Below, in pieces: positions 25,372 through 45,527 of a stretch of DNA of 64,000 nt. The stretch comes from a virus. Numbering within the stretch: the stretch's first letter is position 1; each line of letters starts with the position of its first letter. The stretch lies in the IMG/VR virus record IMGVR_UViG_3300037467_001806, positions 1 through 64,000 of that record, one strand, 5' to 3'. The notes under the pieces are model-generated. The model was not told the DNA's origin and ran no database searches. It saw nothing but the letters and a program-made list of their open reading frames with translations. The translations under genes were made by a program, and so were the position numbers.

Positions 25372-25602
25372 TTAGCCACCTTTTGTCCTCCACTTCTCGT
25401 CAATGAAGTAGACCACGCGGTCACCCTGTTCGGCCCGCTCACCTAAGCCAATTATTAAGCAACAACCATTCACGTCGGCTCCAGCATCCAGTATTCGTAC
25501 ACAGTCGGCATATATTTCAGGCACCCCGTTCAAGGGGTCAGACATAATGCTGTATATGTCTGTGCGCAGCACAGAATTAGGGTAGACATAAATTTTCTTC
25601 AT
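25372..25602 (-). CDS. small protein, member of the L-x-A-[AG]...G-x-G paralogue family
   Basis: KIYVYP.. then CVRILDAGADVNGCCLIIGLGE. ATGA coupling. Confidence 0.6.
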   Translation of the reverse strand: MKKIYVYPNSVLRTDIYSIMSDPLNGVPEIYADCVRILDAGADVNGCCLIIGLGERAEQGDRVVYFIDEKWRTKGG

Positions 25603-26207
25603 GCTTTTTTCTTCGCCAGCAGGAACTCCCTGAATTTCTGCAGCTTCTCCTGGTCCTGCCTGTGCGCGTCGCGCTGGGCCGTGACTTCTGCCTTGATGCT
25701 GTCAATCTGAGCAAGCATGTCTTCCATTTCTTTAGCCAGGGTCCGCACGTAGGACTGCAACTTGTCCAGCTTGACCATGGTTTCGAACGACGGATCGGGA
25801 GGAAGCGCAGCGCGCTCGTCGCCCTTCACCGCGGGCTCCACCACCTTCAGATCAGCAAACGATTTGACAGGCTTGTTTTCCGGCAGGGCCACGACGACCG
25901 GCTTTGGCGCGGGTTCTGGTGCATGCATCTGCACGAAAATATCTGTGGCATCCAGCTCCGGTTCGCGGATCGGCACCTTGGCGTAGACGGCATGCTCTAC
26001 TTCTTTCACAAGGCCTGCTTCCGTGAGCGCCTTGAGGCATCCGTGCACCACGCGAAAGGCCATGGATACGCCCTTGTTCTCTAGTTCGGAAACGACGACA
26101 TGCACCGGCATTGAAGCGTCGTCGCCGCGCATGGCAGAGTAAACCTTCTTGGCTGATACGGTCTGTTCGTCGTATAGCTTTTCAAATTTCTTTTGTGTGA
26201 GAGCCAT
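25599..26207 (-). CDS. putative winged-helix DNA-binding protein with C-terminal coiled coil
   Basis: The N-terminal 90 aa look wHTH-like (VVSELENKGVSMAFRVVHGCLKALTEAGLVKEV). The C-terminus is heptad-like. Confidence 0.5.
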   Translation of the reverse strand: MALTQKKFEKLYDEQTVSAKKVYSAMRGDDASMPVHVVVSELENKGVSMAFRVVHGCLKALTEAGLVKEVEHAVYAKVPIREPELDATDIFVQMHAPEPAPKPVVVALPENKPVKSFADLKVVEPAVKGDERAALPPDPSFETMVKLDKLQSYVRTLAKEMEDMLAQIDSIKAEVTAQRDAHRQDQEKLQKFREFLLAKKKA

Positions 26208-26209
26208 GA

Positions 26210-26407
26210 TTACGGTTGAGTAAGTTCAACAAATTCTAAATAACCGTTCTTGTATCGACCTTGCTTCTTGGTCGTCGACACCGGGTCAACCAGCACTGTC
26301 ATTTCAGTAGCGTCCAGCACCTTTACCATCACCAGCTCGTTCTCTGCTGGGTAGCGTACATACCACCACTGGCCCTTTTCAATTGCTTCACCTGAGTCCG
26401 TTTGCAT
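26210..26407 (-). CDS. hypothetical small protein
   Basis: First ATG of track ORF 26210..26425, whose own start is TTG. Confidence 0.5.
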   Translation of the reverse strand: MQTDSGEAIEKGQWWYVRYPAENELVMVKVLDATEMTVLVDPVSTTKKQGRYKNGYLEFVELTQP

Positions 26408-26645
26408 AATCGACCGAATAAACAAGTACTGTTATCGAGCCGTCGCCGCCTTCGTACGGCCACTCTATAGGTGCTATATGACCCACGCCATCTATAGCCG
26501 CCCTGCCGTCCTGGTCCCTAGCCGCCAGCAAAATGCGCGCCTTGTTCTGCACCGGCTCGTAATACCATTCCAGCGGGCGACGTTTAGAACAGCCGGACGC
26601 GCCCACCACCGCTACATAAATCTGTTCGTCATTTTGCTGCGCCAT
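26388..26645 (-). CDS. small protein, paralogue family member
   Basis: ATG at 26645 (MAQQNDEQIYVAVVG..). Core ARILLAARDQDGRAAIDGVGHI. Confidence 0.6.
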   Translation of the reverse strand: MAQQNDEQIYVAVVGASGCSKRRPLEWYYEPVQNKARILLAARDQDGRAAIDGVGHIAPIEWPYEGGDGSITVLVYSVDYANGLR

Positions 26646-28605
26646 ATGTATCTCCAATACCAGCTTCAGCCGCCAGCGGCAGATCAGGCCACCACGACGG
26701 CGACGTTGAGAACACACGCACCGAGTCTTCCCTGCACTGCTCGGCCATGTCTTCGTCCACCACCAAGTCGGCCTCGTCATGACAGCTCAATGCTACGGCG
26801 CCAGGGTACATCTTGTCAAGGACAAGCGTCTGCTCCATGACGATGTTACGCGCCAAATGCTGGCAAATATTTTCGAACAGGTGCGCGCCGTGGATACGCG
26901 ACTTGTTCTGGCCCTGGCCGTATTCCCACTGCGTGTAGCCGGTGTTGGGGTCGATGAAGCTGTGCAGGTCCGGGTATTGCAGCCAGTGATTATTCGGCGT
27001 GATGAGCTGTTCAAGTGCGGTAAACAGATCGAGTTCGCTGAAAATGTAGGTGTCGGCCGTGCCCATGGCTTCGATGGCGCGATCGCACTGCTTCCAGATG
27101 CCTTCTTTGCCAGCGATGCGATGGAACCTAGTGCGCCAGATTTTAACGATGCGTTTGCACTCGTCTTCCGACAGGTCGGTCTTGCCGCCGGATAGAACAC
27201 GCGCCATATTCTGGAAGGACTTCCACGACGCGCCATACTGCAGGGACAGCATGGCCACCTTGCCGATGAAGCGCTCGTCTTCGTCAGCCTTGGTAATGGT
27301 GCGGCCGAACAGATCGGAGGCAAACCAGCAGTACAGGTCTTCCCTGTTGCGCAGCTTCTCGATGGTGTCCAACTCCCCCGCCAGCTTGTGTGCCACGCGC
27401 AGCTCGATGTTGGACGAGTCCACCACCACGATCTTCTTGCCTTTGGGCGCCTTGAGCGCCAGTCGCAGGCTGTTGTGCGGCTTGTCGGTGGGTTGGCCGG
27501 CCAGAGCGTGACCTTTGGGGTGGCGTGCCACACGCGGCATATTCTGCACGTTCATCTTCATGCCGCCCGACATGCGCCACGAGATAGCTGCGCCGCAGTA
27601 GTTGACCGGCATGGGTAGCTTGCCACCGCGGGCCTGGGCCACATTGATATAGGTTTGCAGGCGGGTCTCAAGCTGCGTGGACTTGGTTTCCAGCCGCACG
27701 GCCGCGGCCAGCGCAACGGTTTCATCTTCGTGCTCAAGCAGCGCTTCCATGCCCTTGTCGGTTTTGGCCAGGGCCGGGATCATGGTGTTGGGGCTGGTCT
27801 TGGAGGGCTTCATAGGCACATCCGCGCCCAAGGCTTGCAGCAACGTAGAGAACTTCATCTGCGACATGACCACGCTGCGCACCGCTTCTTCAGGCGTAGC
27901 GCTGGTGGTAGTGTCCACCAGCCCGCGCTCCTTGGAAACACCATAAAGCTCCAATAGCCGCTGCCTCTTCTCAGCCTGTACCCGCGTCAGGGTGGATCGA
28001 AGCAAGTCAACGTCAGCCTCGAACTTCTCTTCCACCGTCATGCGGGTGGCCAAGTCGATCAGCTTGAGTTCTTTCACCGACAAGCGCGGTGCCAGCGCGT
28101 AGAAGATGCCAGCGCAAAGCTCCGTGTCCTGTCGGTTGTACTCACGCATGGCAGCAATCTGCTCAGATGTGAAGTCGTTGAGCCTCTTGCCCTTGGTGTT
28201 GATCGTTTCAAGGTCGCCCTTCATGCCAAGGCCCAGGGCCGCCGACACCTTCTTCAGCGAGCCCCCCACCGACACGCCGTAGAACGGTCGGCTCATGGCC
28301 AGCGTGCAGCCCCACGCCTTGGGTTTGATACCGAAGCGCCATGCACTAATCAAGTGGTCGAATCCCGAACCGTTGTGCGCCACGATCATGGCGTCATCGA
28401 AGTCACCGTTGCGCTGGTGCTTTTCGAGCAGGGCGCGTATGCGGCCTTCGCCGAAGAACACATCGGTCGGGTATTTGTTCCACTTGATCGCTATCGACTG
28501 AATCTCCGTATCAGGATGCATCACGTAGGTGATGGGGTTCATCTTGGTCAGAGTATGGTCGACGCTCCAATACGTTTCATAGTCAATGAATACGACGTTT
28601 TTCAT
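26629..28605 (-). CDS. family A DNA polymerase with 3'-5' exonuclease domain
   Basis: Exo I FIDYETYW, Exo II AHNGSGFDHL; pol motif A VVVDSSNIELRV, motif B RFIGKVAMLSLQYGAS, motif C LSCHDEADLVV. Confidence 0.9.
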   Translation of the reverse strand: MKNVVFIDYETYWSVDHTLTKMNPITYVMHPDTEIQSIAIKWNKYPTDVFFGEGRIRALLEKHQRNGDFDDAMIVAHNGSGFDHLISAWRFGIKPKAWGCTLAMSRPFYGVSVGGSLKKVSAALGLGMKGDLETINTKGKRLNDFTSEQIAAMREYNRQDTELCAGIFYALAPRLSVKELKLIDLATRMTVEEKFEADVDLLRSTLTRVQAEKRQRLLELYGVSKERGLVDTTTSATPEEAVRSVVMSQMKFSTLLQALGADVPMKPSKTSPNTMIPALAKTDKGMEALLEHEDETVALAAAVRLETKSTQLETRLQTYINVAQARGGKLPMPVNYCGAAISWRMSGGMKMNVQNMPRVARHPKGHALAGQPTDKPHNSLRLALKAPKGKKIVVVDSSNIELRVAHKLAGELDTIEKLRNREDLYCWFASDLFGRTITKADEDERFIGKVAMLSLQYGASWKSFQNMARVLSGGKTDLSEDECKRIVKIWRTRFHRIAGKEGIWKQCDRAIEAMGTADTYIFSELDLFTALEQLITPNNHWLQYPDLHSFIDPNTGYTQWEYGQGQNKSRIHGAHLFENICQHLARNIVMEQTLVLDKMYPGAVALSCHDEADLVVDEDMAEQCREDSVRVFSTSPSWWPDLPLAAEAGIGDTYGAAK

Positions 28606-29102: not shown

Positions 29103-29406
29103 GTATGGATACTCCAAGGAAGGAACAAAATTTACCAAGGCCGTATGCACGGTTGTCTTGGATACGCACTACAAACGAAAACCCACCAGCCGCTTCGATA
29201 CGTCGCAGGTGGTCCTTCTGTAACTCAGTCAGACCTGTGCCCGCTTTGACTTCGCAGCCGAACATGCGGCCGTTGGCTACACCCATGCGGTCGGGGGCGC
29301 CCGACTTACCAAACCCCGCCGTGGTAGGTGTGATGTAGTAGCAGCCCGCGGCTTTCAAGCACTTGTCTACCTTTGCTTTCGCCTTGGCTTCAGGTGTCGC
29401 TGCCAT
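29035..29406 (-). CDS. VRR-NUC domain nuclease
   Basis: GAPDRMGVANGRMFGCEVKAGTGLTELQKDHLRRIEAAGGFSFVV matches the PD..(D/E)xK VRR-NUC pattern. Confidence 0.8.
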   Translation of the reverse strand: MAATPEAKAKAKVDKCLKAAGCYYITPTTAGFGKSGAPDRMGVANGRMFGCEVKAGTGLTELQKDHLRRIEAAGGFSFVVRIQDNRAYGLGKFCSFLGVSIHEAGKQIKELGPLAEDDFRTHA

Positions 29407-30052
29407 CCCCGCCTCCCTCGCGCAAGGCGCGCAATCCAGATATGACGCTTTCGTAGTATTCGCGCTGTTTTTCGGCTAGTGATGGGCAGTCGTTTTTCGC
29501 CTCGTTCAAAGCCTCAAGTGCGCGGCTAATTGCCGCAATCTGTTCCTCCGTCAGCACCGGGCGGGGTGCGGAGCGGGCGGCTTGCATGCACGGCTCGCAA
29601 ATCACGACGCCGGGTAGCTCCATGTGCCTGATGCCGATTTTTCGGTCTTTGGTCGATTGCCCGCAGCAGAGGCAAGACGGCGGCAGCATCGGGCCAAGCG
29701 CATGCTTGCCGTAGAACTCGATCAGGTGCGGGAAGTCGTGTTTCATTCGCTCGATTCTGGCTTGCTCCCCCTGTTGCGCTGCGTGAGCGGCGGCTGTGGC
29801 CTTGGCGGCGGCTGTGGCGTCCGGCTTGACGGCTCCATATCCAGCGCTGAAGGGCGCTGGCTGGGCTTGGGATGCGGCAGCGGTGGCGCGACGGTTCCAC
29901 ATTTCGATGGACGCTTCCCACGTGGATGCGTAAGCGACTTCTATAAAGCAGCCATCGCATTTCACGTAGAAAGGCTTGCCGTCATCGGTGCAGCGCTCAT
30001 GCACTTGCGCGCGGCCATCGCAAAACGGGCAGTTCAACAGTTCGGCGCTCAT
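29390..30052 (-). CDS. Lar-like (restriction alleviation) zinc-ribbon domain fused to a C-terminal extension
   Basis: The N-terminal LLNCPFCDGRAQV..YVKCDGCFIEVAY..EASIEMWNRR is the Lar family pattern. It is followed by an Ala-rich linker and a second Cys cluster, CLCCGQ..ICEPC. Confidence 0.65.
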   Translation of the reverse strand: MSAELLNCPFCDGRAQVHERCTDDGKPFYVKCDGCFIEVAYASTWEASIEMWNRRATAAASQAQPAPFSAGYGAVKPDATAAAKATAAAHAAQQGEQARIERMKHDFPHLIEFYGKHALGPMLPPSCLCCGQSTKDRKIGIRHMELPGVVICEPCMQAARSAPRPVLTEEQIAAISRALEALNEAKNDCPSLAEKQREYYESVISGLRALREGGGDGSDT

Positions 30053-31668: not shown

Positions 31669-31686
31669 ATTCTCACTTCAAAGTTA
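31669..31686 (-). repeat. conserved leader element copy L3
   Basis: Minus strand reads CTAACTTTGAAGTGAGAA, followed by a 7-codon mini-ORF whose TGA overlaps the ATG of the next gene. Confidence 0.6.
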
Positions 31687-31690
31687 GTAA

Positions 31691-31984
31691 TTATTCGCCC
31701 AGGAGTTGGGCCATGCTGAACTCGATGCCGCTCTTGTACAAAGCCCGCGGGCGAAACTCAACGGCACGGTAGCGGGCAGGAGATTCGTCGTTGGCGTTGG
31801 CTCGTTCGATACGAGGTTCACGGCGACATGCCATGGATTTCAGGCTACGGCGAACCGTAGCCACGTCCGTTTGCTTGCTGTAAAAATTCAAGCGCTCGGT
31901 GACTTCTTCAGGACTCATGTTGCGCGCTTCGCGCAATAGCAATCGGTGAATCTGCTCTTGCAGATCAACATTAATAGTTTGCAT
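31691..31984 (-). CDS. hypothetical protein, possible wHTH
   Basis: 97-aa ORF; overlaps the upstream gene by 14 nt. Confidence 0.6.
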   Translation of the reverse strand: MQTINVDLQEQIHRLLLREARNMSPEEVTERLNFYSKQTDVATVRRSLKSMACRREPRIERANANDESPARYRAVEFRPRALYKSGIEFSMAQLLGE

Positions 31985-32399
31985 CGCGTTTTTTATCTCT
32001 AGTCATTTCGACCCAATACATCTGCGCCAGGCACTCTATCGTATTCAGGGGCACAGGGTGCTCCATGTCCACGTAAGAAAAAGAAATAACACTGTCACCC
32101 GCTTTGTCGCCGTCGTTTTCCTCCACCCAAAAGGTGATGCCGTCACGCATGCGACGACCGACCCCTTGGATATATGTGCCAGGGTCGGTCGCGCGCAGGA
32201 TACGCAGCCTTTCGAGTATGTTTTGCGGTAGTTCTTCGTCGCGCTCGTACTGCGAAAGGCCGTTAGTGCCAGTGACAAAAAGACTGTCTGGATGTTGAGT
32301 GATGCGGATCATGGGGCTGTGTGAACCTGTCTGTTCGTACTTTATTTTTTCAAATACTGCTGTATGGATCGGGCTCCATGGCCATTTGAGGACTTTCAT
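31971..32399 (-). CDS. hypothetical protein
   Basis: SD GAGGTAGTATGA-ATG; 142 aa. Confidence 0.6.
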   Translation of the reverse strand: MKVLKWPWSPIHTAVFEKIKYEQTGSHSPMIRITQHPDSLFVTGTNGLSQYERDEELPQNILERLRILRATDPGTYIQGVGRRMRDGITFWVEENDGDKAGDSVISFSYVDMEHPVPLNTIECLAQMYWVEMTRDKKRDANY

Positions 32400-32616: not shown

Positions 32617-33525
32617 TTACTCCACTATGGATGACAAGTCCGGAGGCAGGCTTGCCAAAATATCAGACACCCGCGCCCGCACATCCTCGCGCACCTTCTC
32701 GTTCTTGCGCAGTTCCTGCGCTTCTACGCCGGCCAGGGCTGCAGCCAGATCGCGCCGCGCCGACTCCATCTTGGGGTCGCCCGTCACATTCAACGCGCGC
32801 AGCATGGAAAGAAGCTCGTGTGCGTTCTCCAGCATGCTGTCCCTGAAGACGTTGGGCTTGCCGTCGTCCTTATAATCGAGCCGTTCCTTCATGTGCGTCA
32901 AGCACTCGTGCAGGCGGCCCCACATGGCAGCCATCGCCTCGGCGATGCGTTCGTTCAGCGCGCGCCCATACTGCTCAGCTAACTCTTGCTTCAGCCTGTT
33001 CTCGGCGTCCACCCGAAAATCACCAGCAGTCGGCACAGGGCACACGCGCCACTGCACATCGAACTTGGCGCGCACATGTGCCGCATCCGGGTACTCGTTG
33101 CGGTCGAACAGATTGCCCAGCTTGAATGCCATGGCGCGTACCGCCGTGCTGTAGTCGGTCAAGAAGCTATCGACCGCCGCTTCAAATTCACCCTTCATGT
33201 CGTTCATGGCGTCGGTGAACTCCATAAACTGCGCGATGGGCAGCAGCCGCATATCGCCCATCCACGGCAGCGTGTGCGCGTTGACGTAGTTGCGGATACG
33301 GTTTCCCGCCTTGCCGATTTCGGCAAACTTCGGGTTATCCACGAACAGCTTCTTCGTCACATGTGCCGCATCGCGCGCCTTGGCGTTGTTCTCTGCCACC
33401 ACCTTGTCAGTGACATCCCTTGCCGTCTTGCGTCCAGCCCACATGGATATATTCAGGTCGATCAGTACGGCCGAAGCCACCAAGCCGCCGACTTGCGGTT
33501 CGATTTCGATGCGTGACATTTTCAT
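32617..33525 (-). CDS. conserved phage/plasmid-type protein of unknown function (resembles DUF3150-type proteins from memory)
   Basis: SD GAGGATGAA. LIDLNISMWAGRKTARDVTDKV.. N-terminal pattern; 302 aa. Confidence 0.6.
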   Translation of the reverse strand: MKMSRIEIEPQVGGLVASAVLIDLNISMWAGRKTARDVTDKVVAENNAKARDAAHVTKKLFVDNPKFAEIGKAGNRIRNYVNAHTLPWMGDMRLLPIAQFMEFTDAMNDMKGEFEAAVDSFLTDYSTAVRAMAFKLGNLFDRNEYPDAAHVRAKFDVQWRVCPVPTAGDFRVDAENRLKQELAEQYGRALNERIAEAMAAMWGRLHECLTHMKERLDYKDDGKPNVFRDSMLENAHELLSMLRALNVTGDPKMESARRDLAAALAGVEAQELRKNEKVREDVRARVSDILASLPPDLSSIVE

Positions 33526-36781: not shown

Positions 36782-36810
36782 CGCTCAACCCTCCGATAAG
36801 AATTTAAAAA

Positions 36811-36827: not shown

Positions 36828-37888
36828 ACTGTAAAGAAGTGGGACAGGTCTTTCACCTGCTTGACCATGGCCTTGTGGTGCGCAGCCCACGACGACTTGC
36901 TGGGCATGCACAGTATTTTGTTGATAAAGAGCGCCTGCAGTTCCTCGTTGAACTCTTTGCGCGTCACGTACTTCAAGACGTTTTCCAGGGTGTCCTTTTC
37001 CACCCGCATGATGAGGTTGTAGATCAGCAGGATGCGCGCCGTCACATCCTTGGGCACTTCGGCCTTTGCCGGGTCAGCCGTGATTGCCGAGATATGCGGC
37101 AGCTTGTCGTTCATCGCCACGAAAGCCAGCAAATCCGCAGCGGCGGCCGAGCCAACAGTGCCGACCAACGAAGCGTACAGCGTGTTCTCGCTGACCAGTT
37201 CCTTGCACTTCAACTGCGTGCTGACCTTTTCCAAGGAGCGCGGCGTGACGACCTTGTTGCGCGCGATTTTCGGGTGAAAGATGTACTTGTTCTCACCGTG
37301 GGGGTCGTCGTGGTACGACTTCAACACGTCCGGGTATTGATCCACAAACGCCATCACCGTGGGCTCGATGCTGTTCTCCGCGGCCCAGGCCAGCCATTCA
37401 TCCGGGGTCGGCTTGCGCATGTTGAACAGCACGAAACGATCGGTCTGGTGCGGCAGAATCTTGTCGCCCAGCCCTTCGTCGGGCATGTTGCCCGTAGCGA
37501 TGACGATGCTGTCCGGGTGCAGCTTGGTCGAACCCAAGCGCCGGTCTTCGATCACGGGCAGCAGCATGTTCTGCGCTTCGCGTGAGCCCTTGGTGAACTC
37601 ATCGATCACGAGCACGACAGGCCGGCTGGTATGCAGCTTGAAAACTTCGTTCGGGAAGTACTCGGTGCAGCGGCGCTCACGGTCAATCACCGGCATCGAA
37701 GTGTCGCCCAGGGACATATTGGCGCAATCGATGTAGGTGTAATCCATGTTCAGCTTGGCGCCAATCGTGCGGCCCACTGCGGTCTTGCCGATGCCCATTT
37801 CCCCACCGATCATCGCGGTCAACTTGGTGCCGTTGGCCACAATCCAGCTCACCATTTCGTCGTGATTCACGAAGAGTTTGTCGCTCAT
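36824..37888 (-). CDS. AAA+ ATPase, MoxR/CobS-like
   Basis: Walker A GGEMGIGKT, Walker B VLVIDEF, then REAQNMLLPVIEDRRL. Confidence 0.8.
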   Translation of the reverse strand: MSDKLFVNHDEMVSWIVANGTKLTAMIGGEMGIGKTAVGRTIGAKLNMDYTYIDCANMSLGDTSMPVIDRERRCTEYFPNEVFKLHTSRPVVLVIDEFTKGSREAQNMLLPVIEDRRLGSTKLHPDSIVIATGNMPDEGLGDKILPHQTDRFVLFNMRKPTPDEWLAWAAENSIEPTVMAFVDQYPDVLKSYHDDPHGENKYIFHPKIARNKVVTPRSLEKVSTQLKCKELVSENTLYASLVGTVGSAAAADLLAFVAMNDKLPHISAITADPAKAEVPKDVTARILLIYNLIMRVEKDTLENVLKYVTRKEFNEELQALFINKILCMPSKSSWAAHHKAMVKQVKDLSHFFTV

Positions 37889-37894: not shown

Positions 37895-37912
37895 TCCTCA
37901 CTTTCAAGTTAG
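37895..37912 (-). repeat. conserved leader element copy L6
   Basis: Minus strand reads CTAACTTGAAAGTGAGGA, followed by ATTAAA-ATG. Confidence 0.7.
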
Positions 37913-37961
37913 GTTATTGCTTAAACGCTGCGTTGGCCCTATGCCAATCACAGTAACTACA

Positions 37962-37990
37962 ATTATACAGGTGATACTTGTCGTTGTCAA
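37962..37990 (-). promoter_or_regulatory. sigma70-type promoter P3
   Basis: Minus strand reads TTGACAACGACAAG..; TTGACA-17 nt-TATAAT. Confidence 0.65.
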
Positions 37991-38004
37991 GTGTAAATAC
38001 TTTG

Positions 38005-38226
38005 TTACCCCCGCCTTGACAGTGGCATGAACTTCAACACTTCCGTTTCGGTCCCTCCTATGGTCCGGTACATGGCGTAAATATGTGAGTACTGCCAAGC
38101 CAACTCTTCGATCTGTGCAGGCGTCGCTTGTACCCAGCCTTCTGCGCTGCGCGGCAGGCGTTCTACCCGTCGTTCCATCTGCCGCATTTCACGCAGTAGT
38201 ATTGCCTTGGCTATCTTCTTCAACAT
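38005..38226 (-). CDS. hypothetical small protein
   Basis: ATG at 38226 after GGAGAGGAACC (MLKKIAKAILLREMRQMERR..). Confidence 0.5.
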   Translation of the reverse strand: MLKKIAKAILLREMRQMERRVERLPRSAEGWVQATPAQIEELAWQYSHIYAMYRTIGGTETEVLKFMPLSRRG

Positions 38227-38518
38227 GGTTCCTCTCCAGTGCATTTGAAACTCCTTCGTCCAGCGTTACCCCTTCTAAAAACGTTTCCATTATGTAGTAC
38301 TCCCTGTACCCCTCCCACTTCCGGATGCGCCCCATGCCCGGAATTTGGTAGTCGACAAGGGACCGGGGATATGATGCCCACATTTCGTGCAGTGCTTCGT
38401 CGAGGGTTGCATCCATCAAGAGCATGGCAATTGCTTCCCGCGCAGATGCCTCATACTTCGGCTTAAAATAAAAGCCGCTGTACCTGTTGTGCCAAATACA
38501 GTAAATGTCGGACATCAT
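38189..38518 (-). CDS. small protein, divergent paralogue family member
   Basis: ATGA coupling at 38518. Core AIAMLLMDATLDE....VDYQIPGMGR. Confidence 0.5.
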   Translation of the reverse strand: MMSDIYCIWHNRYSGFYFKPKYEASAREAIAMLLMDATLDEALHEMWASYPRSLVDYQIPGMGRIRKWEGYREYYIMETFLEGVTLDEGVSNALERNHVEEDSQGNTTA

Positions 38519-38859
38519 TCCTCCGGCACTACAATCGTGATGGCTGTCTGCGCCCAGCACGTAGACCCGGCGTGCTTATTGGCCTCTTCGATACTTTCGT
38601 GCGCGTGCGTCTCCCAAAAGCCGTCGATGTTCTTGTAGACGTTGATGTGCAGCGTCACGCGCGTCATGGCCTGCACAGCGTCAAACTGACCGTGGTTATG
38701 CCCGCCAACAGCGGTGCCGCTATCTGCATACCACTTGTAAAGCGTGTTGCCAGGTTCGATGTAGCCGTAGGCGAACTGACTGTCACGCGTTTGGTCCGGG
38801 CGCAGCACCAGCGTAATCGGGCTCCCGCCCTTGGTTCTCACTTTCTTGGTCCAGTCCAT
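38515..38859 (-). CDS. hypothetical protein
   Basis: 114-aa ORF with a single ATG; overlaps the 3' end of the upstream ORF by 77 nt. Confidence 0.55.
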   Translation of the reverse strand: MDWTKKVRTKGGSPITLVLRPDQTRDSQFAYGYIEPGNTLYKWYADSGTAVGGHNHGQFDAVQAMTRVTLHINVYKNIDGFWETHAHESIEEANKHAGSTCWAQTAITIVVPEE

Positions 38860-39112
38860 CTGCTTTCTCCATGATTGGTCCTAACAAGGCAACCACTACG
38901 TTTTCGTCAAACCGAACGGACAAATATTGACCGTGGTTCCATAATCTCCCCACCCCTGTAATACGAACAACAGGTGGGTACACTCCCTCGCCAGTGCCAT
39001 CCCATGCGGCCAACAGCATCGATACATAGGGTTTGGCATTGTCAGGCAGTTGCTCAAACGGGACGCCCCAAGGCCATTGTGAAATGCTCCAATTGGATAG
39101 GCGAATGTTCAT
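38783..39112 (-). CDS. small protein, paralogue family member
   Basis: Core YVSMLLAAWDGTGEGVYPPVVRITGVGR. The 3' end may be shorter than the ORF. Confidence 0.55.
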   Translation of the reverse strand: MNIRLSNWSISQWPWGVPFEQLPDNAKPYVSMLLAAWDGTGEGVYPPVVRITGVGRLWNHGQYLSVRFDENVVVALLGPIMEKADGLDQESENQGREPDYAGAAPGPNA

Positions 39113-39372
39113 AGGTCTGACTCCGGCTTACTCCTTACTGGCAGTGTCAAATATTCTTTGTTGGAGCCTATCCGACGGCACAGTGACCCCACGCCTTTGA
39201 TCGAACCGACTTCCCAAAACTCGGTGTACGGCCGCATAGCCGCGCGCAACAGTTCGATCTGAGTAGTGCATTCATATGGAGGCGTGTCTGTAGAGTCCAT
39301 ACCGTCCATGTCGTGGTACAGCCCGTCTTCCTCGTCCCATTTGTCGCTGATGTTGTACTTGATAGTACTCAT
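39109..39372 (-). CDS. small protein, paralogue family member
   Basis: Core QIELLRAAMRPYTEFWEVGSIKGVGS; ATGA coupling. Confidence 0.6.
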   Translation of the reverse strand: MSTIKYNISDKWDEEDGLYHDMDGMDSTDTPPYECTTQIELLRAAMRPYTEFWEVGSIKGVGSLCRRIGSNKEYLTLPVRSKPESDL

Positions 39373-39560
39373 AGCCCCAGCCCCGCCAAAAACGCAGCCT
39401 CTTCCTCGCTGCTGTCGTCCACACCCACGACGGTGAAGCTAACCAGTTCTTTTGGCATAGCCGTGTGCACGCCGAGCAGCAATGCGTGCACTTTCATTTC
39501 AGCCTGGCTATCGCTCGTGGCTTGAACATCCATCGTCACCAACACTTTCATCGTCTTCAT
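39369..39560 (-). CDS. hypothetical small acidic protein
   Basis: ATG at 39560 after AAGGAAAATC (MKTMKVLVTMDV..). Confidence 0.45.
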   Translation of the reverse strand: MKTMKVLVTMDVQATSDSQAEMKVHALLLGVHTAMPKELVSFTVVGVDDSSEEEAAFLAGLGL

Positions 39561-39825
39561 GATTTTCCTTATCCAGCCATTCTTGACTGATGTGGTAAGT
39601 AACTTCGGTGAGGAATTTATGCACGTGCATCGCCCCCACACCTTCTATTTCCGCACTTGCGACAAGCTTATCATTCCAAGGTTCTCCCTTGGCAGCGTTA
39701 AGCAAGTCCATGGCATCTTGTATGTGCGGCGTGATAGCACCATCTAATGGCGAACCGACGTCGTGCCCAAATGTGCCATCTACCCATCGCATCCATCGGC
39801 ACCCGATATAGACCTGCGCGCACAT
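39508..39825 (-). CDS. small protein, paralogue family member
   Basis: Leader copy L7 upstream. Core AMDLLNAAKGEPWNDKLVASAEIEGVGA. Confidence 0.55.
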   Translation of the reverse strand: MCAQVYIGCRWMRWVDGTFGHDVGSPLDGAITPHIQDAMDLLNAAKGEPWNDKLVASAEIEGVGAMHVHKFLTEVTYHISQEWLDKENHEDDESVGDDGCSSHER

Positions 39826-39829: not shown

Positions 39830-39847
39830 TCCTCACTTTCACGTTAG
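39830..39847 (-). repeat. conserved leader element copy L7
   Basis: Minus strand reads CTAACGTGAAAGTGAGGA, followed by TGTC-ATG. The TAA of the upstream peptidase gene is the TAA inside CTAAC. Confidence 0.7.
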
Positions 39848-40959
39848 AAGTTACACACTTCATCGAACATGTCCGCCAACAGATCGTCGGCGTCGATGTA
39901 CTCCGACATGGCGGCCAGCCCGATGTACTTGTCACACAGATCAGGCGTGATCTTGTTGGCGTTTATGAGCCGCGTCGCCTGATCCGAGTCGTCCGGCATT
40001 ATAGCCTGCGCCATGGCAGTGACAAGTGACGATACGGAGCCTTCGATCGCCGAATCAAGGCAATCCAGCACGTAGTTCATGTCGTCATCGTCAAGACAAC
40101 CGCCCGTGGTCGACGTCTTCCAGCCACTTGGCATAGAGAACACTTCCACATCCTTCGGGTCACGCACGACCGGCAAGGCTTCCCAGTCAAGCGTTGCCGC
40201 GGCCTGCGCCAGCGTAACGTAGTGATGAAGGTTCAGCTTCTCACGGTCGGTATGCTCCTTGTCATACCCCACGCTGATGTTGGTGCACTCGGGGATGAAG
40301 TCGACGAACTCCGCCGTGTCGGTGTAAATCCCCGAGTCATCAGGTGAATACATGAACCACTCATCCTGCTTGTTGAGCGCACCAGCCAGCGCGTTAGCGA
40401 AACTGTCGGAACAGCAGCGCCCCCAGCCCTGATGGGAAATGATGCTGTCCATCGCACGCCGGTCAAACGCAATGGCCCGGTCAAACTGCAGCAGCAAGTC
40501 ACCATGCCGGTCCGCCAGATAGCGCGCACCGATGCCACCCTTCTCTTCACCCTGGGTGAAGATGTAGTAGCCACGCACCTCTGCGTGCAGCAGGTGCATG
40601 AGCATCGCCACGCCGGCGCCGTCATCAGCGCCAAGCACATCGCCGCAGGCTTCCCAGTGCGTGCGGGTCTTGCGAACGCGGTTATACCCTTCCAGCCGGT
40701 GCACAGTGTCCACATGGGCCACGAACAGGGTGCGGCTGCCTTCGCCGCGCGCGTCCACGTGCAGGTTGCCGACGGAATCGCGCCACGCCTTTTGACCAGT
40801 TCTTATTACCGCCGGCAGCATATCCATCAGCCACGACGTAAACTTGGCCGTGCTCTTGGTGCCATGCGGCCGCTTGGTCGACAAGGCGCGTTGCAATACC
40901 TTGTACAAGATACTGCTGGTGTGCAGGCGTGCGACAGGGGCGATATCAAACGTGCTCAT
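39844..40959 (-). CDS. zinc metallopeptidase-like protein (M28/M20/M42-type co-catalytic site pattern)
   Basis: FVAHVDTVH, LGADDGAGVAMLMH and FTQGEEKGGIGARY match the H-x-D / D / EE ligand order of aminopeptidase-type enzymes. Confidence 0.65.
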   Translation of the reverse strand: MSTFDIAPVARLHTSSILYKVLQRALSTKRPHGTKSTAKFTSWLMDMLPAVIRTGQKAWRDSVGNLHVDARGEGSRTLFVAHVDTVHRLEGYNRVRKTRTHWEACGDVLGADDGAGVAMLMHLLHAEVRGYYIFTQGEEKGGIGARYLADRHGDLLLQFDRAIAFDRRAMDSIISHQGWGRCCSDSFANALAGALNKQDEWFMYSPDDSGIYTDTAEFVDFIPECTNISVGYDKEHTDREKLNLHHYVTLAQAAATLDWEALPVVRDPKDVEVFSMPSGWKTSTTGGCLDDDDMNYVLDCLDSAIEGSVSSLVTAMAQAIMPDDSDQATRLINANKITPDLCDKYIGLAAMSEYIDADDLLADMFDEVCNF

Positions 40960-42331
40960 GGCGTTCTTCCTCGGTCAGTTGTTCAGGGTGCACGGTTTCC
41001 GAACCGATGAAGACGGGCTCGACAGTATCGCAGTGATGCGGGAGTCCAGTGCGCGAACACACCCACAGTCCAGGGTCGTCATCGTGATACCACCCAATGT
41101 TCTCAACATATGTGCAGTATCGGCGCAGCCGATACTCTTCATCAACGCAGCGCACCACACGATCGTCATCTTCCAGATACCACTCACCCTTAACGTATAC
41201 GCAATCGTCTTGACGCTGGTAGTCGCCATCCACATCACACACGATGTTGTTGTCGTAAAGGTAGTTTTCGTCATACGGCGTATCGTTTACAGTCACTACG
41301 TAATTTTCGTGGACGTAGTACATTTCACCCCCTCTGCCATATACATGGTGGTAATACTCATCGAAGCATTCTTCACAGGCAGAAGAAGAGTCGTGCCCCA
41401 CGCAATGCATGTCGCATTCATCGTAGTACACGCTGCAGCATTCGCACGCCATGCGGCCCCCGCGCGACGCGACGCCGTCGGTCACTTCAAAGTCATACTC
41501 ACCGCCGTAATCCACAACCAGCGTGCTGGCGTTAACTTCGGTCACCTGCCGGCACTCACCGTCTAGGTACGCCGCAAGCACGCGGTTGCCAACCTGATAG
41601 CGGCGCAGCCTGCGTCCTTCCCAGCTCTCGGCTTTCGTGTAGCCCCGTGCTTGCAGCCACGCTTCCAACTTCTCGTCGGAGTAGGAGTAGCCACCATCGT
41701 GGTCGCGCTTGAAACTGCGCACGAATATATCGACGTCGCCATCACTGTTTATCAATGCGCGGCCGTCGATACGCCCCTCGACCAGCCGCACAGCCACGCC
41801 CCACCCCAGCGCCGGGTCATACACGCAGTACGGGTGGCGCCGCACGTTGTCGTCGCACGTGACATATACGTCATAACTTGACATGCAGGAGTGCGGCCCC
41901 TCGTGCGCAGCCTGGACAAGCTCAGCCACATCGCGGCGTATTTCCATCCTGTCTTCGTGGATCGTATGCAGCGCCACCAAGTCGCGGATGGTGTGGTCAG
42001 TCATGCCCGAGAAATGCCGGCGCAGATACTTGCCAATGGTGGTGCGCGTCTGTTTGTTGCGCTCACCATCCTGCTCGTTACGGGTATAGGCCAGCATCCC
42101 TTTCACTTCAACAGAAGCATGCGGCCACTCCATGGCCAGCAGGGCAGCATCATCCGGCACAAAACCTTTGTTCATTGCGTCGTACACGGCACGATGAAAC
42201 GAATGCTCGTTCGTCGTGCGGGCGTACCACTCCCGGCTTGTAGCCATGGCACCAGCTACTTTGCACACACGCTGGTAGGGCGTGGCGTGCTCATTCACGT
42301 CAATTTCAACGGCTTTAAATTGGCTGTTCAT
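40946..42331 (-). CDS. hypothetical 461-aa protein with Cys/Asp/Tyr-rich C-terminal domain
   Basis: True ATG at 42331 after leader copy L8a; the track start is the GTG at 42379. C-terminus CECCSVYYDECDMHCVGHD..CEECFDEYYHH.. Confidence 0.65.
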   Translation of the reverse strand: MNSQFKAVEIDVNEHATPYQRVCKVAGAMATSREWYARTTNEHSFHRAVYDAMNKGFVPDDAALLAMEWPHASVEVKGMLAYTRNEQDGERNKQTRTTIGKYLRRHFSGMTDHTIRDLVALHTIHEDRMEIRRDVAELVQAAHEGPHSCMSSYDVYVTCDDNVRRHPYCVYDPALGWGVAVRLVEGRIDGRALINSDGDVDIFVRSFKRDHDGGYSYSDEKLEAWLQARGYTKAESWEGRRLRRYQVGNRVLAAYLDGECRQVTEVNASTLVVDYGGEYDFEVTDGVASRGGRMACECCSVYYDECDMHCVGHDSSSACEECFDEYYHHVYGRGGEMYYVHENYVVTVNDTPYDENYLYDNNIVCDVDGDYQRQDDCVYVKGEWYLEDDDRVVRCVDEEYRLRRYCTYVENIGWYHDDDPGLWVCSRTGLPHHCDTVEPVFIGSETVHPEQLTEEERHEHV

Positions 42332-42335
42332 AAAG

Positions 42336-42352
42336 TCCTCACTTTCAGTTGG
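42336..42352 (-). repeat. leader element copy L8a
   Basis: Minus strand reads CCAACTGAAAGTGAGGA, followed by CTTT-ATG. Confidence 0.6.
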
Positions 42353-42373
42353 CCAAAAAGGTACTGCTAAAAA

Positions 42374-42390
42374 TCTCACTTAGAAGTTAG
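42374..42390 (-). repeat. leader element copy L8b (inside the 3' end of the upstream gene)
   Basis: Minus strand reads CTAACTTCTAAGTGAGA. The upstream TGA stop is the TGA of AAGTGAG. Confidence 0.55.
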
Positions 42391-42687
42391 TTTCTCCATC
42401 TGCTCCCTTGGCAGTCGGTACGCTTGATGCGCGTATCTCAGGCCAGAGCTCATTAAGGTGGACGCCCCGTAGCCGGGTATATAGGCAGATAGCTTTCCCC
42501 CCTCACAATCGGCCTCCAGGGCGGCATCGAGCATCAGCATGCGCTCCCACACCACGATGGGTAGAGGTTGCCCATCGGTGTACCGTATTTCTAGAGAACC
42601 CAACCCCTTAACGGGGAACTTGGTAGGCGTGTCGTTGCGTTCTTCCGCGTCGACGTAGAAGACTGTCCATGAATCACAGAGCGGCAT
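42376..42687 (-). CDS. small protein, paralogue family member
   Basis: Core RMLMLDAALEADCEGGKLSAYIPGYGA. Confidence 0.55.
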   Translation of the reverse strand: MPLCDSWTVFYVDAEERNDTPTKFPVKGLGSLEIRYTDGQPLPIVVWERMLMLDAALEADCEGGKLSAYIPGYGASTLMSSGLRYAHQAYRLPREQMEKLTSK

Positions 42688-42688: not shown

Positions 42689-42961
42689 TCAATCTCCCGC
42701 GTTTTTCGCCGGTACCCATAACTGTTCTTCGCGCAGGGTATCGTCGTCGTTGAAGTAGACGCGATACTCGCCCACCCCTTCTATGATGGCAACCGCACAG
42801 CCGCCATCATCGTCGTATCCATCCATCGCCGCGCGCAGGATGTTGACCGTGTCCACGTATCGCTTGGGCATGGTCTTGTAAAGGCACTTGGTAGTGTCAC
42901 GACTATACAAATACTCAATGCCTGACCATTCCGCGTTAGTGATTACCAAAAACTTAGCCAT
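42689..42961 (-). CDS. small protein, paralogue family member
   Basis: KFLVITNAEWSG.. with core TVNILRAAMDGYDDDGGCAVAIIEGVGE. Confidence 0.6.
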   Translation of the reverse strand: MAKFLVITNAEWSGIEYLYSRDTTKCLYKTMPKRYVDTVNILRAAMDGYDDDGGCAVAIIEGVGEYRVYFNDDDTLREEQLWVPAKNAGD

Positions 42962-43242: not shown

Positions 43243-43260
43243 TCCTCACTTTCACGTTAG
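43243..43260 (-). repeat. conserved leader element copy L9
   Basis: Minus strand reads CTAACGTGAAAGTGAGGA (identical to L7), followed by TTCT-ATG. Confidence 0.7.
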
Positions 43261-43319: not shown

Positions 43320-43331
43320 CTCAGAACCACC

Positions 43332-43360
43332 ATTGTACACCTGTAGCTTTACGTTGTCAA
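43332..43360 (-). promoter_or_regulatory. sigma70-type promoter P2
   Basis: Minus strand has CTTGACAACGTAAAG (the same 15-mer as P1); TTGACA-17 nt-TACAAT. Confidence 0.65.
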
Positions 43361-43369
43361 GTCACACCC

Positions 43370-43654
43370 TCACTCATCAATCTTGAAATCCACGTCCAGC
43401 CAGTACTTGATGAGTTCACTGTTGCCAGCGTAGTCGTGTTCCAATTGTTTGGCGCCTACATGGGGCAGTATCATGAACACGCCTTCGGCAAAGGTTCGCA
43501 TGGTTTCGCCGCCCCACGCCGCGTCAAGAAGGGTCATGATGGTTTGCTCGCGTTCGGACAGCCGCGTATGCTTTACTAGCACCCGCCAATCGGTGTCCAC
43601 CTTCATGCCGTAGGTGCGGCCATCAAAAAAACCGTCGCAGAATTTAATTTTCAT
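43370..43654 (-). CDS. small protein (weak paralogue family resemblance)
   Basis: TIMTLLDAAWGGETMRTFAEGV; 94 aa. Confidence 0.6.
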   Translation of the reverse strand: MKIKFCDGFFDGRTYGMKVDTDWRVLVKHTRLSEREQTIMTLLDAAWGGETMRTFAEGVFMILPHVGAKQLEHDYAGNSELIKYWLDVDFKIDE

Positions 43655-43883
43655 TTCGCTCGTCCTCGTCTATTTCCACGTATCGAATTTCTATCTCGCG
43701 CCTGAGCCCCATGGCATGCAGCAAGGGGTCAGGGATCGGTGTTTTCTCTTTGGCACACATGTTCAATAGCGCCGGGCTGTAACCCAGGCAGCGCGCTGCG
43801 GCTTTATACGAACCACCGCTTCGCTCGATCAGCCTCTTGAACCGGCGCAACAACTCATCCTTGTCGATGGTCTTAGTAGCCAT
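43644..43883 (-). CDS. HTH DNA-binding protein (Cro/CI-type-like)
   Basis: ATG at 43883 (MATKTIDKDELLRRF..). SYKAAARCLGYSPALLNMCAKEK is HTH-like. Confidence 0.6.
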   Translation of the reverse strand: MATKTIDKDELLRRFKRLIERSGGSYKAAARCLGYSPALLNMCAKEKTPIPDPLLHAMGLRREIEIRYVEIDEDERNEN

Positions 43884-44301
43884 CTTCGTCGTAGTCACCC
43901 AAGTCGTAGAAGATATAGCCGTAGTATGGGCCTCTGCGGCCAACGCCTTTGATGGACGAGTAGCCGTCGTCATCACATGCAGCGTCAAGCAGCAGCATTT
44001 CGACCCTGAAGCGCTTCGGATAACGCCGCCAGTAATACCTGTGCCGCTTCCCATCTTTGAGCACGGTAGATTTCAATTCAGGGCGGAGCAAGCACCACAA
44101 GGCATGGACCATAGCGGTCGCGCCCGCTCCAAACGCAATGCCCTTCAGTATCGCAAGCGCAACAGTAACTGCCGTGGAATTGTCCGGTGCGTCTTGGAAG
44201 TAGCGTGCCACTGCGTATAGCGCGACGGCGCCGCCTGCAAATAGGCCTTCGGGCGCGACTTCGTCCATGCGCCGCCAGGCGCGTTTTAACCAGTTCTTCA
44301 A
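43873..44301 (-). CDS. membrane protein with C-terminal paralogue-family domain (TTG start inferred; alternative ATG at 44268)
   Basis: Leader L10, then TTG at the usual spacing. Two hydrophobic segments, then EMLLLDAACDDDGYSSIKGVGR. Confidence 0.45.
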   Translation of the reverse strand: MKNWLKRAWRRMDEVAPEGLFAGGAVALYAVARYFQDAPDNSTAVTVALAILKGIAFGAGATAMVHALWCLLRPELKSTVLKDGKRHRYYWRRYPKRFRVEMLLLDAACDDDGYSSIKGVGRRGPYYGYIFYDLGDYDEDGY

Positions 44302-44306: not shown

Positions 44307-44324
44307 TCCTCACTTACAAGTTAG
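44307..44324 (-). repeat. conserved leader element copy L10
   Basis: Minus strand reads CTAACTTGTAAGTGAGGA. The upstream TAA stop lies inside CTAAC. Confidence 0.7.
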
Positions 44325-44698: not shown

Positions 44699-44705
44699 GC
44701 GTTAA

Positions 44706-44951
44706 TTACAGTTGCTCTGAGTCACGCTTTGCAAACGTAAACCATTCGCTGCCGTCACAGCATTGACGGAGATAAGTGCCCACACCTACGATCGACGCAA
44801 TTTCCCAATCGGGTGAGACGCCGGGCGCAGCCGCGGCGCGCAGCAGCTCTATGCTCGTGCTCCAGTCACCCGGTGGTTTAAACGGTGACATCGCGTCCCC
44901 AACGTAGTGGCCGTTTACCCACGTATCGCTCACCCTATAAAACGTCTTCAT
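44706..44951 (-). CDS. small protein, paralogue family member
   Basis: Core SIELLRAAAAPGVSPDWEIASIVGVGT; leader L11 upstream. Confidence 0.65.
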   Translation of the reverse strand: MKTFYRVSDTWVNGHYVGDAMSPFKPPGDWSTSIELLRAAAAPGVSPDWEIASIVGVGTYLRQCCDGSEWFTFAKRDSEQL

Positions 44952-44956
44952 TCACA

Positions 44957-44975
44957 TCCTCACTTTACAAGTTAG
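44957..44975 (-). repeat. conserved leader element copy L11
   Basis: Minus strand reads CTAACTTGTAAAGTGAGGA. The upstream stop TAA lies in the spacer. Confidence 0.7.
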
Positions 44976-45213
44976 TTTGTTCTTTACTCTGTAAATAAAA
45001 CGTCTCGTGCGTGGCTCTGAAGTAGGAGCCCACACCTTCAATGACGGCCAGCCCGCCCCACGAACCCTTTGGCTGCGCCGCCGCGCGCAGTATGTTCATG
45101 GCATCCTCGTATTCTGCTGGCGCCTCGTTTATGAACTTCATGCGTTCAGCAGGGACCGAGTAGTAGCCAAACTGTTTGTCATATACACACCCCAGATATA
45201 CATACAATTGCAT
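44965..45213 (-). CDS. small protein, paralogue family member
   Basis: LYVYLGCVY.. with core AMNILRAAAQPKGSWGGLAVIEGVGS. Confidence 0.65.
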   Translation of the reverse strand: MQLYVYLGCVYDKQFGYYSVPAERMKFINEAPAEYEDAMNILRAAAQPKGSWGGLAVIEGVGSYFRATHETFYLQSKEQTNL

Positions 45214-45248
45214 CGTGTCCTCTCACTTAACAATGTCAATTAACAACA

Positions 45249-45277
45249 ATTATACGCTTGTTGTTACTACTTGTCAA
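45249..45277 (-). promoter_or_regulatory. sigma70-type promoter P4 (tandem TTGACATTGACA)
   Basis: Minus strand has TTGACA-17 nt-TATAAT. A second TTGACA lies directly upstream (45278-45283). Short leader to the ATG at 45213. Confidence 0.6.
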
Positions 45278-45527
45278 TGTCAAGCGGTAGCCACACGAGT
45301 GTGCAGTTATGTACCACCAAGACCTGACCGTACCCAGCGATACACGCTACGCCGTCATCGTCCACGGCTGCAAGCAAGACCGGCAGGCGCTCATCCATCA
45401 CGGCCTTGATAGCATCAGGCAGGGCGCAGTAGTGCTGGCTATAAGATTTAAACCCTCCTTCGTATCGGTTCTTGTCCGGCAAATACTTTGCATCCTGGTA
45501 GACGATGACGGGTTTATGTGTAGCCAT
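45267..45527 (-). CDS. small protein, paralogue family member
   Basis: ATG at 45527, 1 nt after the upstream TGA. Core LPVLLAAVDDDGVACIAGYGQ. Confidence 0.55.
   Translation of the reverse strand: MATHKPVIVYQDAKYLPDKNRYEGGFKSYSQHYCALPDAIKAVMDERLPVLLAAVDDDGVACIAGYGQVLVVHNCTLVWLPLDIDK

Follow-up and report, generated by a model that had tools for sequence, protein, structure and literature searches.

The 64,000 nucleotides (nt) analysed here, positions 1 to 64,000 of the IMG/VR virus record IMGVR_UViG_3300037467_001806 (the whole stretch is called the window), are a portion of a phage genome in which 18 genes encode diverged copies of one small protein. The genes lie in a dense run of about 45–47 minus-strand genes that extends from ~47,200 down to 24,000. 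The family is previously undescribed and belongs to one lineage of uncultured ~75-kb phages. By description it is a viral multigene family – many diverged paralogues, with a copy number that varies between related viruses – and its members are candidates for a diversified set of host-binding proteins.

Eighteen paralogues in the window

The initial annotation had proposed about 15–17 paralogues on the strength of shared motifs. All 17 open reading frames (ORFs) that it listed are on the minus strand at the coordinates given and carry the motifs quoted for them. Pairwise comparison with phmmer was significant inside two groups only, one of 44965, 42689, 44706 and 39109 and the other of 34719 and 34392 (members are named here by their lower coordinate). 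Because this joins only 6 of the 17 ORFs, the case for a family rests on profiles. For each ORF a hidden Markov model (HMM) was built from the 16 others and run against all 571 six-frame ORFs of at least 40 amino acids (aa) in the window. Fifteen of the 17 left-out ORFs were retrieved, with E-values of 7e-13 to 1.3e-3, and for 14 of them nothing outside the training set ranked higher. Member 26388 ranked second, after a newly found member at 31971–32399. This ORF had been missed in the initial annotation and was recruited by all 17 models (E 2e-5 to 3e-3), so that the family stands and its count is corrected to 18.

Two of the left-out ORFs gave weak results in these searches: 38189–38518 was marginal (E 0.022) and 33901–34134 failed (E 0.9). 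With relatives from other phages added to the profile, both are clear members (E 1e-9 and E 7e-8). The three ORFs that had been set apart as weaker (33901, 38189 and 43370) thus all belong to the family, with support from the window by itself failing for the first and marginal for the second. The final iterated profile matched exactly 18 ORFs in the window, the weakest at 27 bits (E 2e-7) and the best non-member at 4.6 bits (E 1.1). Over the window and the related phage contigs (designated L001, L003 and so on) it converged at 79 members among 1131 six-frame ORFs, then at 120 among 1466, and in no genome did it recruit an ORF on the opposite strand or in the wrong frame. The members are significantly related at the level of profiles, as seen in the leave-one-out retrieval, the cross-phage profile and the gap of more than 20 bits to non-members.

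Most pairs of members are not significant in pairwise comparison, and short 'GVG' matches do arise by chance in large repeat proteins, both of which would be expected if the likeness of the motifs were a chance or compositional effect of a GC-rich genome with no true family behind it. This explanation is refuted by the retrieval against six-frame decoys, by the zero matches to a wrong strand or frame together with the size of the bit gap, by the 22 tandem ORFs that a profile built from the window alone matches in an unrelated contig (L001), and by confident and mutually consistent AlphaFold2 models. A chance origin of the family is excluded.

The members are 76–142 aa long, mostly 76–109 aa, without a signal peptide, and 15 of the 18 have an isoelectric point (pI) of 4.2–5.6. 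They are described here in the direction of transcription; all are on the minus strand, E-values are those of the leave-one-out search, and those of the cross-phage profile are marked as such. The first is 45267–45527 (86 aa, VLLAAVDDDGVACIAGYG; E 9.7e-5, profile E 6.9e-10). It is followed by 44965–45213 (82 aa; E 1e-10, profile E 4.9e-14), the first gene after a sigma-70 promoter with a 12/12 match, and by 44706–44951 (81 aa; E 1.4e-7, pairwise E 2.5e-10 to 39109), which has a variant of a repeated leader element upstream. The ORF 43873–44301 (142 aa, TTG start, pI 9.0; E 1.2e-6), with the leader at 44307–44324, has two hydrophobic N-terminal stretches, a basic linker and the family domain at its C-terminus (envelope aa 76–145 of the longer ORF); it is probably anchored in the membrane, with a cytoplasmic family domain. 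Its final 8 nt are overlapped in a different frame by the ATG (43880–43878) of a small minus-strand ORF at 43644–43880 (MATKTIDKDELLRRFKRLIERSGGSYKAAARCLGYS...), which lies within the ORF 43644–44054, inside the array, and has the look of a Cro-type or helix-turn-helix regulator; a Pfam search with it gave no match at E≤0.01.

Members 43370–43654 (94 aa; E 1e-4, profile E 1.5e-10), 42689–42961 (90 aa; E 5.2e-10, pairwise E 1.2e-5 to 44965) and 42376–42687 (103 aa; E 4.4e-5, profile E 5.4e-9) come next. Further along are 39508–39825 (105 aa; E 1.5e-5, profile E 4.3e-14), which has the leader at 39830–39847 and an acidic C-terminal tail, 39109–39372 (87 aa; E 4.6e-9, profile E 1.5e-11) and 38783–39112 (109 aa; E 3.2e-5, profile E 4e-9). 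The tail of the last overlaps the next ORF, 38515–38859 (114 aa), by 77 nt in a different frame, and the Logan gene caller called only the 114-aa gene in the identical contig L046 and omitted 38783–39112; the true end of this member, or its expression, is uncertain. The adjoining member 38189–38518 (109 aa; E 0.022, profile E 1e-9) carries a long loop insertion.

Directly downstream of a DUF2201 gene comes 34719–35009 (96 aa, ending in YLDPKW; E 7.4e-8, pairwise E 4.8e-8 to 34392). It is followed by 34392–34691 (99 aa; E 6.8e-13), 34160–34399 (79 aa; E 3.1e-6), which was modelled with AlphaFold2, and 33901–34134 (77 aa; E 0.9, profile E 7.1e-8). The last has the leader upstream and represents a 'YYAGD' subgroup, with pairwise matches in L003 at 18169–18453 (E 4.5e-11) and 11860–12141 (E 3.7e-8). 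The newly found 31971–32399 (142 aa; profile E 2e-7; P0012 in an exhaustive protein search, E 1.5e-10) has its family domain at about aa 28–100 (RLRILRATDPGTYIQGVGRR), followed by a C-terminal extension of ~45 aa. The remaining two are 26388–26645 (85 aa; E 7.5e-4, profile E 1e-8), just downstream of the DNA polymerase gene and with a pairwise match to a member in L044 (E 1.4e-4), and 25372–25602 (76 aa; E 1.3e-3, profile E 7.7e-13), which is near the family consensus and matches L003 at 5739–6065 (pairwise E 1.3e-8).

Conserved positions and predicted fold

The consensus of the 120 members is ...l-P-x5-a-v-A-L-L-D-A-A-(loop)-x-A-x-I-x-G-V-G-x-r-(loop)-Y-x-l. The sole invariant residue is the second G of GVG (120 of 120). 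The residue two before GVG is aliphatic in 100% of the members, and the first A of the AA pair in LLDAA (96%), the second L of LLDAA (88%) and the first G of GVG (80%) are also well kept. The D of LLDAA, present in 67%, is the only conserved polar residue. Between helix and GVG there are 8 to 24 residues, length is likewise variable after GVG and in the N-terminal part, and the family alignment is without any stretch of 7–10 conserved columns.

AlphaFold2 models were made for two different members from different alignments, with a 32-sequence alignment used for one of the predictions. The model of 44965–45213 has a mean predicted local distance difference test score (pLDDT) of 82.6 and a predicted template modelling score (pTM) of 0.72, and that of 34160–34399 has values of 89.5 and 0.74. 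The topology of the two agrees – three strands, a helix, three strands – and in the model of 34160–34399 these elements are strands 3–11, 17–20 and 26–29, helix 33–45, and strands 51–54, 58–61 and 70–77. The segment that carries the motifs, from the helix to strand 5, has block-mean pLDDT values of 85–95. The predicted fold is a compact alpha+beta unit in which GVG would turn the hairpin between strands 4 and 5 and the Y-x-h...W/F segment would form the final strand. The helix has the consensus a-i-A-L-L-D-A-A; the variable loop after it is often acidic, and a second variable loop follows the hairpin. Both models agree with the architecture read earlier from the motifs, in which an N-terminal strand is followed by a helix that ends in LLxAA, then by a loop and I-x-G-V-G.

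A helix-hairpin-helix reading of GVG was rejected, as both models place it in a beta-hairpin turn (54–58/62–66 and 51–54/58–61). The family profile run against PDB sequences gave a best E of 0.67, to a helix-hairpin-helix repeat of topoisomerase V and over the GVG segment only. Foldseek searches of PDB with both models and of BFVD with the first found no match below E 0.1; in BFVD the best E was 0.15, and all query-normalised template modelling (TM) scores were at most 0.36. The best neighbour was a longin-like TRAPP subunit (7b6d_E; query TM-score 0.49, probability 0.60, E 0.71), and the longin/roadblock proteins MglB, AP-2 sigma and Mon1-Ccz1 scored below it. Beta-grasp or ubiquitin-like proteins (MoaD, TtuB, GB1-like, staphylokinase and the ubiquitin-like domain of Sharpin) appeared for the first model only at E 2–9 and TM 0.2–0.35. 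Longin/roadblock and beta-grasp domains are like the family in having a beta-sheet with one packed helix, but they differ from it by a root-mean-square deviation of 6–12 Å, with TM-scores below 0.5, no E below 0.1 and no sequence relation found. The modelling that had been suggested as a check gave a consistent topology and no assignment to a known fold.

The conservation pattern looks like that of a non-enzymatic scaffold rather than an active site, because only the turn glycine is invariant, conservation elsewhere is of small or hydrophobic residues, the loops are variable and most copies are acidic. The persistence of 18 intact copies at ~20% identity likewise points to a scaffold with a freely varying surface and loops. 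With a pI of 4.2–5.6 in 15 of the 18, binding of nucleic acid (DNA) is unlikely.

Relatives in other phages and turnover of the repertoire

An exhaustive HMM search of 1.84 billion representative proteins with the window-only profile gave 32 matches at E≤1e-3. Sixteen are the window's own proteins, ten are outside proteins of 71–100 aa with the family motif, and six are large repeat proteins (P0006, P0015, P0019, P0021, P0022 and P0032). All six large proteins were rejected as spurious sums of partial matches because the three that were read (P0019, P0021 and P0032) carry recurring short motifs like 'VTVDGVGTW'. Six of the ten outside proteins were traced, all to uncultured phage contigs that resemble the window in layout. 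Where long enough, these contigs have a divergent terminase gene, a long run of small genes and genes for AAA_5, DUF2201 and DUF3150 proteins; the same divergent terminase is found in L001, L004 and L045, with a large portal-sized gene adjoining it in L004 and L045. Counted with the final profile in the fetched part of each contig, there are 24 members in L001, 23 in L003, 14–15 in L004, 30–31 within 20 kb in L044, and at least nine in L045, which ends inside its array. All 120 members of the converged profile are on the coding strand.

Further loci were found by scanning DNA with two degenerate patterns, ALLDAA-x10-GxG and LLDAA-x4-G-x-A-x3-GxG. In IMG/VR these gave 33 and 14 loci, one of them genuine: the contig L296 has a single copy between helicase-like and primase-like genes. 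There was one genuine locus among the 120 matches listed for metagenomes (L287, a short contig with three tandem copies) and none among the 120 listed for genomes; absence of the family from genomes or metagenomes cannot be concluded from these scans. Word-indexed searches of 5.8 billion proteins with three growing profiles returned only proteins of the window and of L001, the method being too insensitive for this family.

The initial annotation recognised no named family, and none emerged here. A comparison of 117 members with Pfam-A and PHROGs v4 gave zero matches at E≤0.01, 48 members gave only scattered single matches to NCBIfam at E≥0.027 (noise), single-protein scans against curated families were likewise empty, and an assignment to a housekeeping domain was not obtained. 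No match at E≤0.01 was found by tblastn of 33 concatenated members against 50,697 GenBank phage records, and literature searches found no description of the family. As none of Pfam, PHROGs and NCBIfam contains the family, the 120 sequences could be used to build a new model for it.

The phage itself is distant from cultured phages. Megablast against the same 50,697 records found no match; its polymerase shares no more than 32% identity with the polymerases of Rhizobium phage RHph_TM3_14A and Pseudomonas phages Rollin and KPP25, and its portal shares ~40% with the portals of phage DSL-LC04 and Pelagibacter phages HTVC023P and HTVC027P. A profile scan that covered most of each genome (about 50 kb each) found nothing significant in Rollin, KPP25 and RHph_TM3_14A, which are among the best polymerase matches, or in DSL-LC04 and Caulobacter phage RW, which are portal matches. 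Three small ORFs of RHph_TM3_14A (10866–11123, 12619–12948 and 25768–26004) have a common 'A-x-AMLLGD' motif, and one of them has IPGVG. None of them scores significantly with the family profile (E 0.05–0.8), and they may be a very distant or an independent set of small paralogues.

The initial annotation had described the family as heavily diversified, and the 18 copies have a mean identity of 20% in matched columns. The maximum is 37%, and members in other phages are no more distant from these copies than the copies are from one another; the copies are old. For 21 of the 24 members in L001, 21 of 23 in L003 and 11 of 14 in L004 the closest member is a copy in the same genome, identity within these genomes reaches 53–61%, and each of the three has its own C-terminal signature (DYYI..SFLEAQ, YWLD.EWS and Y.IEG.W). 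Some members correspond between genomes: those directly after the DUF2201 gene are at a matching position in the window, L003 and L044, and the YYAGD subgroup (33901) has relatives in L003. The pattern is that of birth-and-death evolution, in which a core of the family is conserved and the arrays expand.

Tandem arrays and lineage-specific expansions, with 14 to ~30 copies among the four contigs that have the AAA_5/DUF2201 region or more than 15 kb of sequence, could also come from selfish or neutral tandem duplication, in which recombination between repeated regulatory sequences produces copies with no function of their own; a repeated leader and repeated promoters are present in the region. 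On this explanation it is hard to account for 18 of 18 ORFs being intact at ~20% identity and for the scaffold residues being kept in 120 copies, which implies long purifying selection on each copy. The leader is found at four of the 18 members and equally at non-members, and no other repeat recurs at member boundaries. Phage genomes are also limited by capsid size, which argues against ~5 kb of ballast. Neutral duplication is therefore considered very unlikely.

The identical genome (100%) was recovered from several independent samples or runs: in contigs of 75.3 and 73.8 kb from two Logan runs, in a JGI contig of 1.2 kb and in the 75.5-kb JGI contig to which the protein database assigns these proteins. 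Contigs L046–L048 are 100% identical to the window, L005 and L006 to L004, and L002 to L001, with no microdiversity visible. Between different phages the arrays share no alignable DNA.

Promoters, gene neighbourhood and proposed function

The region that holds the family, called promoter-dense in the initial annotation, is driven by consensus host-type promoters. There are three sigma-70-type promoters on the minus strand: TTGACA-17-TATAAT (12/12) at 45249–45277, upstream of 44965–45213, the same sequence (12/12) at 37962–37990, upstream of the AAA ATPase gene, and TTGACA-17-TACAAT (11/12) at 43332–43360. They have in common a 38-nt repeat (family D4; 45242–45279, 43325–43362 and 37955–37992, minus strand) that goes beyond the -35 and -10 hexamers and suggests that the three are co-regulated. 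The promoters fit transcription by the host polymerase. A terminator-like hairpin (43322–43301) is found just downstream of one of the repeat promoters.

The leader, CTAACTTNNAAGTGAGGA, has 15 matches in the window at up to three mismatches, where chance would give 0.17. The minus strand has ten of these, eight of them in the early region, and there is in addition a variant with an extra spacer base upstream of 44706. Minus-strand copies are at 23862–23879, 31670–31687, 34140–34157, 36810–36827, 37895–37912, 39830–39847, 42373–42390, 43243–43260 and 44307–44324, and the variant is just upstream of 44951. As the element is almost a palindrome (CTAACTT / AAGTTAG; a perfect one in the copy at 36810), the five matches on the plus strand overlap matches on the minus strand. 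It contains or overlaps a Shine-Dalgarno sequence, and could be a site of RNA processing or the operator of a regulator that acts on translation or transcription.

Many members had been thought to be preceded by this leader, and gene and leader to have been duplicated as cassettes. The leader is upstream of only four of the 18 members (33901, 39508, 43873 and, as the variant, 44706) and equally upstream of non-members, namely the AAA ATPase, a 477-aa protein, a 72-aa membrane protein and a 94-aa non-member. Each of the other members abuts or overlaps the gene before it, and no repeat family but the leader recurs at member boundaries. Cassette duplication is not supported because the leader is not specific to the family.

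The same run of genes encodes a family A DNA polymerase (26629–28605), a PD-(D/E)XK nuclease, a Lar-like restriction-alleviation protein, an M28-like peptidase, an AAA_5 ATPase (36824–37888), a DUF2201 protein with VWA-like and metallopeptidase domains (35009–36250) and a DUF3150 protein (32617–33525). The Lar-like protein (29390–30052, minus strand, 220 aa) has an N-terminal Lar restriction-alleviation domain (E 2.3e-7), which makes it a recognisable, if predicted, anti-restriction element within the family's region. Pfam scans of the small non-member neighbours gave nothing informative on context. The AAA_5 and DUF2201 genes are found in the same order in the window, L003, L004, L044 and RHph_TM3_14A (L008), and DUF3150 was additionally called in the window, L003 and L044.

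This module offers one alternative role for the family. The members could be substrates, adaptors or specificity subunits of the AAA_5/DUF2201/DUF3150 proteins, each directing the machine to a different client. All of the family loci that reach this region (the window, L003, L004 and L044) encode AAA_5 and DUF2201, three of them with DUF3150 as well, and three to four members are directly downstream of DUF2201 at a matching position in the window, L003 and L044. However, RHph_TM3_14A keeps the ATPase/metallopeptidase pair in the same order without a significant member (best E 0.05), most members are in long arrays distant from the module, and the member in L296 is in a replication region. An adaptor role is unlikely.

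The position of some members suggests another alternative, that they serve processes of the phage itself, as replication or transcription accessory factors or as scaffolding or internal virion proteins in many isoforms. Members 26388 and 25372 are beside the DNA polymerase gene, and the L296 member is between helicase-like and primase-like genes. One-to-one conservation would be expected of factors acting on conserved phage machinery, but the repertoires differ largely by lineage, no member was found in the cultured phages whose polymerase or portal genes are closest, and the acidic pI argues against DNA binding. A role of this kind is judged quite unlikely.

Diversified binding of host proteins, with anti-defence or takeover as functions that would fit, is the most economical reading because of the host-type promoters, the Lar-domain gene in the region and the turnover of the repertoire between related phages; a probability of about one half is assigned to it. 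The genes would be read from host-type sigma-70 promoters in the early/middle region, amid the AAA_5, DUF2201, DUF3150, Lar-like and replication genes. The conserved glycine, small and hydrophobic positions would make up the scaffold, leaving the surface, the two loops and the N-terminal part free to differ, and the proteins would act by binding without catalysis. Each copy would bind, and then block or redirect, a different host protein or variant of one, such as the effectors of defence systems, and changes in the size of the repertoire would come from tandem duplication, divergence and loss. Features of the anti-defence class are found in the family – small size (76–142 aa), acidic pI in most copies, no catalytic conservation and consensus sigma-70 promoters.

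Several points weigh against host binding. The searches made found no homologue with a known role and no partner. The closest cultured relatives share the AAA_5/DUF2201 module or similar head genes and have no detectable member, so that phages of this type can in general do without the family. Early timing is deduced solely from promoter consensus and gene order. Some copies (26388, 25372 and that of L296) are in a replication region, which fits a purely immediate-early arsenal less well. That the loops between the helix and strand 4 and between strands 5 and 6 leave the sheet at the same end is an inference from strand order in the models. A more specific version of the host-binding reading is put forward only tentatively: the domain may be a new fold that serves one phage lineage as a diversifiable binding scaffold, with each paralogue neutralising a different defence effector or polymorphic target variant and with birth-and-death turnover tracking the hosts.

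Multigene families are well known in large eukaryotic DNA viruses, among them MGF110, MGF360 and MGF505 of African swine fever virus, the ankyrin and Bcl-2-like families of poxviruses and the US22/SUKH family of herpesviruses. SUKH arrays are described in PMC3113570. The phage family is like these in consisting of many diverged small-domain paralogues, in tandem, in a variable or early part of the genome, with lineage-specific gain and loss. The eukaryotic-virus proteins are non-enzymatic and thought to bind host factors, a likeness that on the phage side is predicted. The differences are that the present family belongs to a tailed phage of ~75 kb and that its domain is unrelated in sequence and has no fold match. 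To our knowledge, families of 18 to ~30 copies of one small domain have not been described for phages of this size. The family is itself new, and by analogy appears comparable in kind to viral multigene families of putative host-interaction proteins.

Phage anti-defence loci (anti-CRISPR genes, Ocr-like early inhibitors and Lar-type restriction alleviation) are also similar, in that their proteins are small, mostly acidic and non-enzymatic and are encoded behind strong early promoters in a setting of accessory genes; here there is a Lar-domain gene in the same region. Such islands collect unrelated proteins, whereas the present arrays hold dozens of paralogues of one fold, for which no known family gave a match. 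No Aca-type regulator was identified, the helix-turn-helix-looking ORF 43644–43880 being without a Pfam match.

Host-takeover modules, such as gp37–60 of Bacillus phage SPO1 and the early genes of T4 and T7, resemble the region in that their small genes are densely packed, have strong ribosome-binding sites and strong promoters of the host type, and open the infection programme. They differ in that their proteins are mutually unrelated, whereas 18 of about 45–47 genes in the early region here belong to one family. The phage clusters of this kind that we know of are collections of unrelated proteins, not dozens of paralogues.

Polymorphic toxin loci of bacteria contain tandem arrays of immunity proteins (PMC3482391). 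These are also small, diverged, paralogous binders in tandem, each thought to neutralise another toxin variant; they are bacterial and beside toxin genes, whereas the phage array is without an adjacent toxin gene. The members gave no match to the Imm or SUKH family models in Pfam.

About 7% of the 75-kb genome, and up to ~30 genes in a relative, are spent on one small domain without an assigned fold, a share that implies strong, ongoing selection for diversity of a single scaffold. In phages, whose genomes are compact, accessory genes usually occur singly and are not related to each other. If the copies bind host proteins, they would be a natural library of inhibitors, and their targets could reveal defence systems or essential host functions. 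The compact scaffold of ~70 residues, with its two loops of variable length, might in that case be engineered, and the family would be a clear case of gene-family birth and death in phages.

A few other genes of the window are of note. The 477-aa protein with the leader upstream (40946–42379, minus strand) has no Pfam match. Cys, Asp, Tyr and Val are abundant in its C-terminal half, where there are several CxxC-like pairs, e.g. CECCSVYYDECDMHCVGHDSSSACEEC; the protein may bind metal. The structural region contains a very large ORF of 1877 aa (9967–15600, plus strand). A 980-aa ORF (16672–19614, minus strand) adjoins a helicase-like ORF, and at the equivalent position L296 has an ORF of 946 aa.

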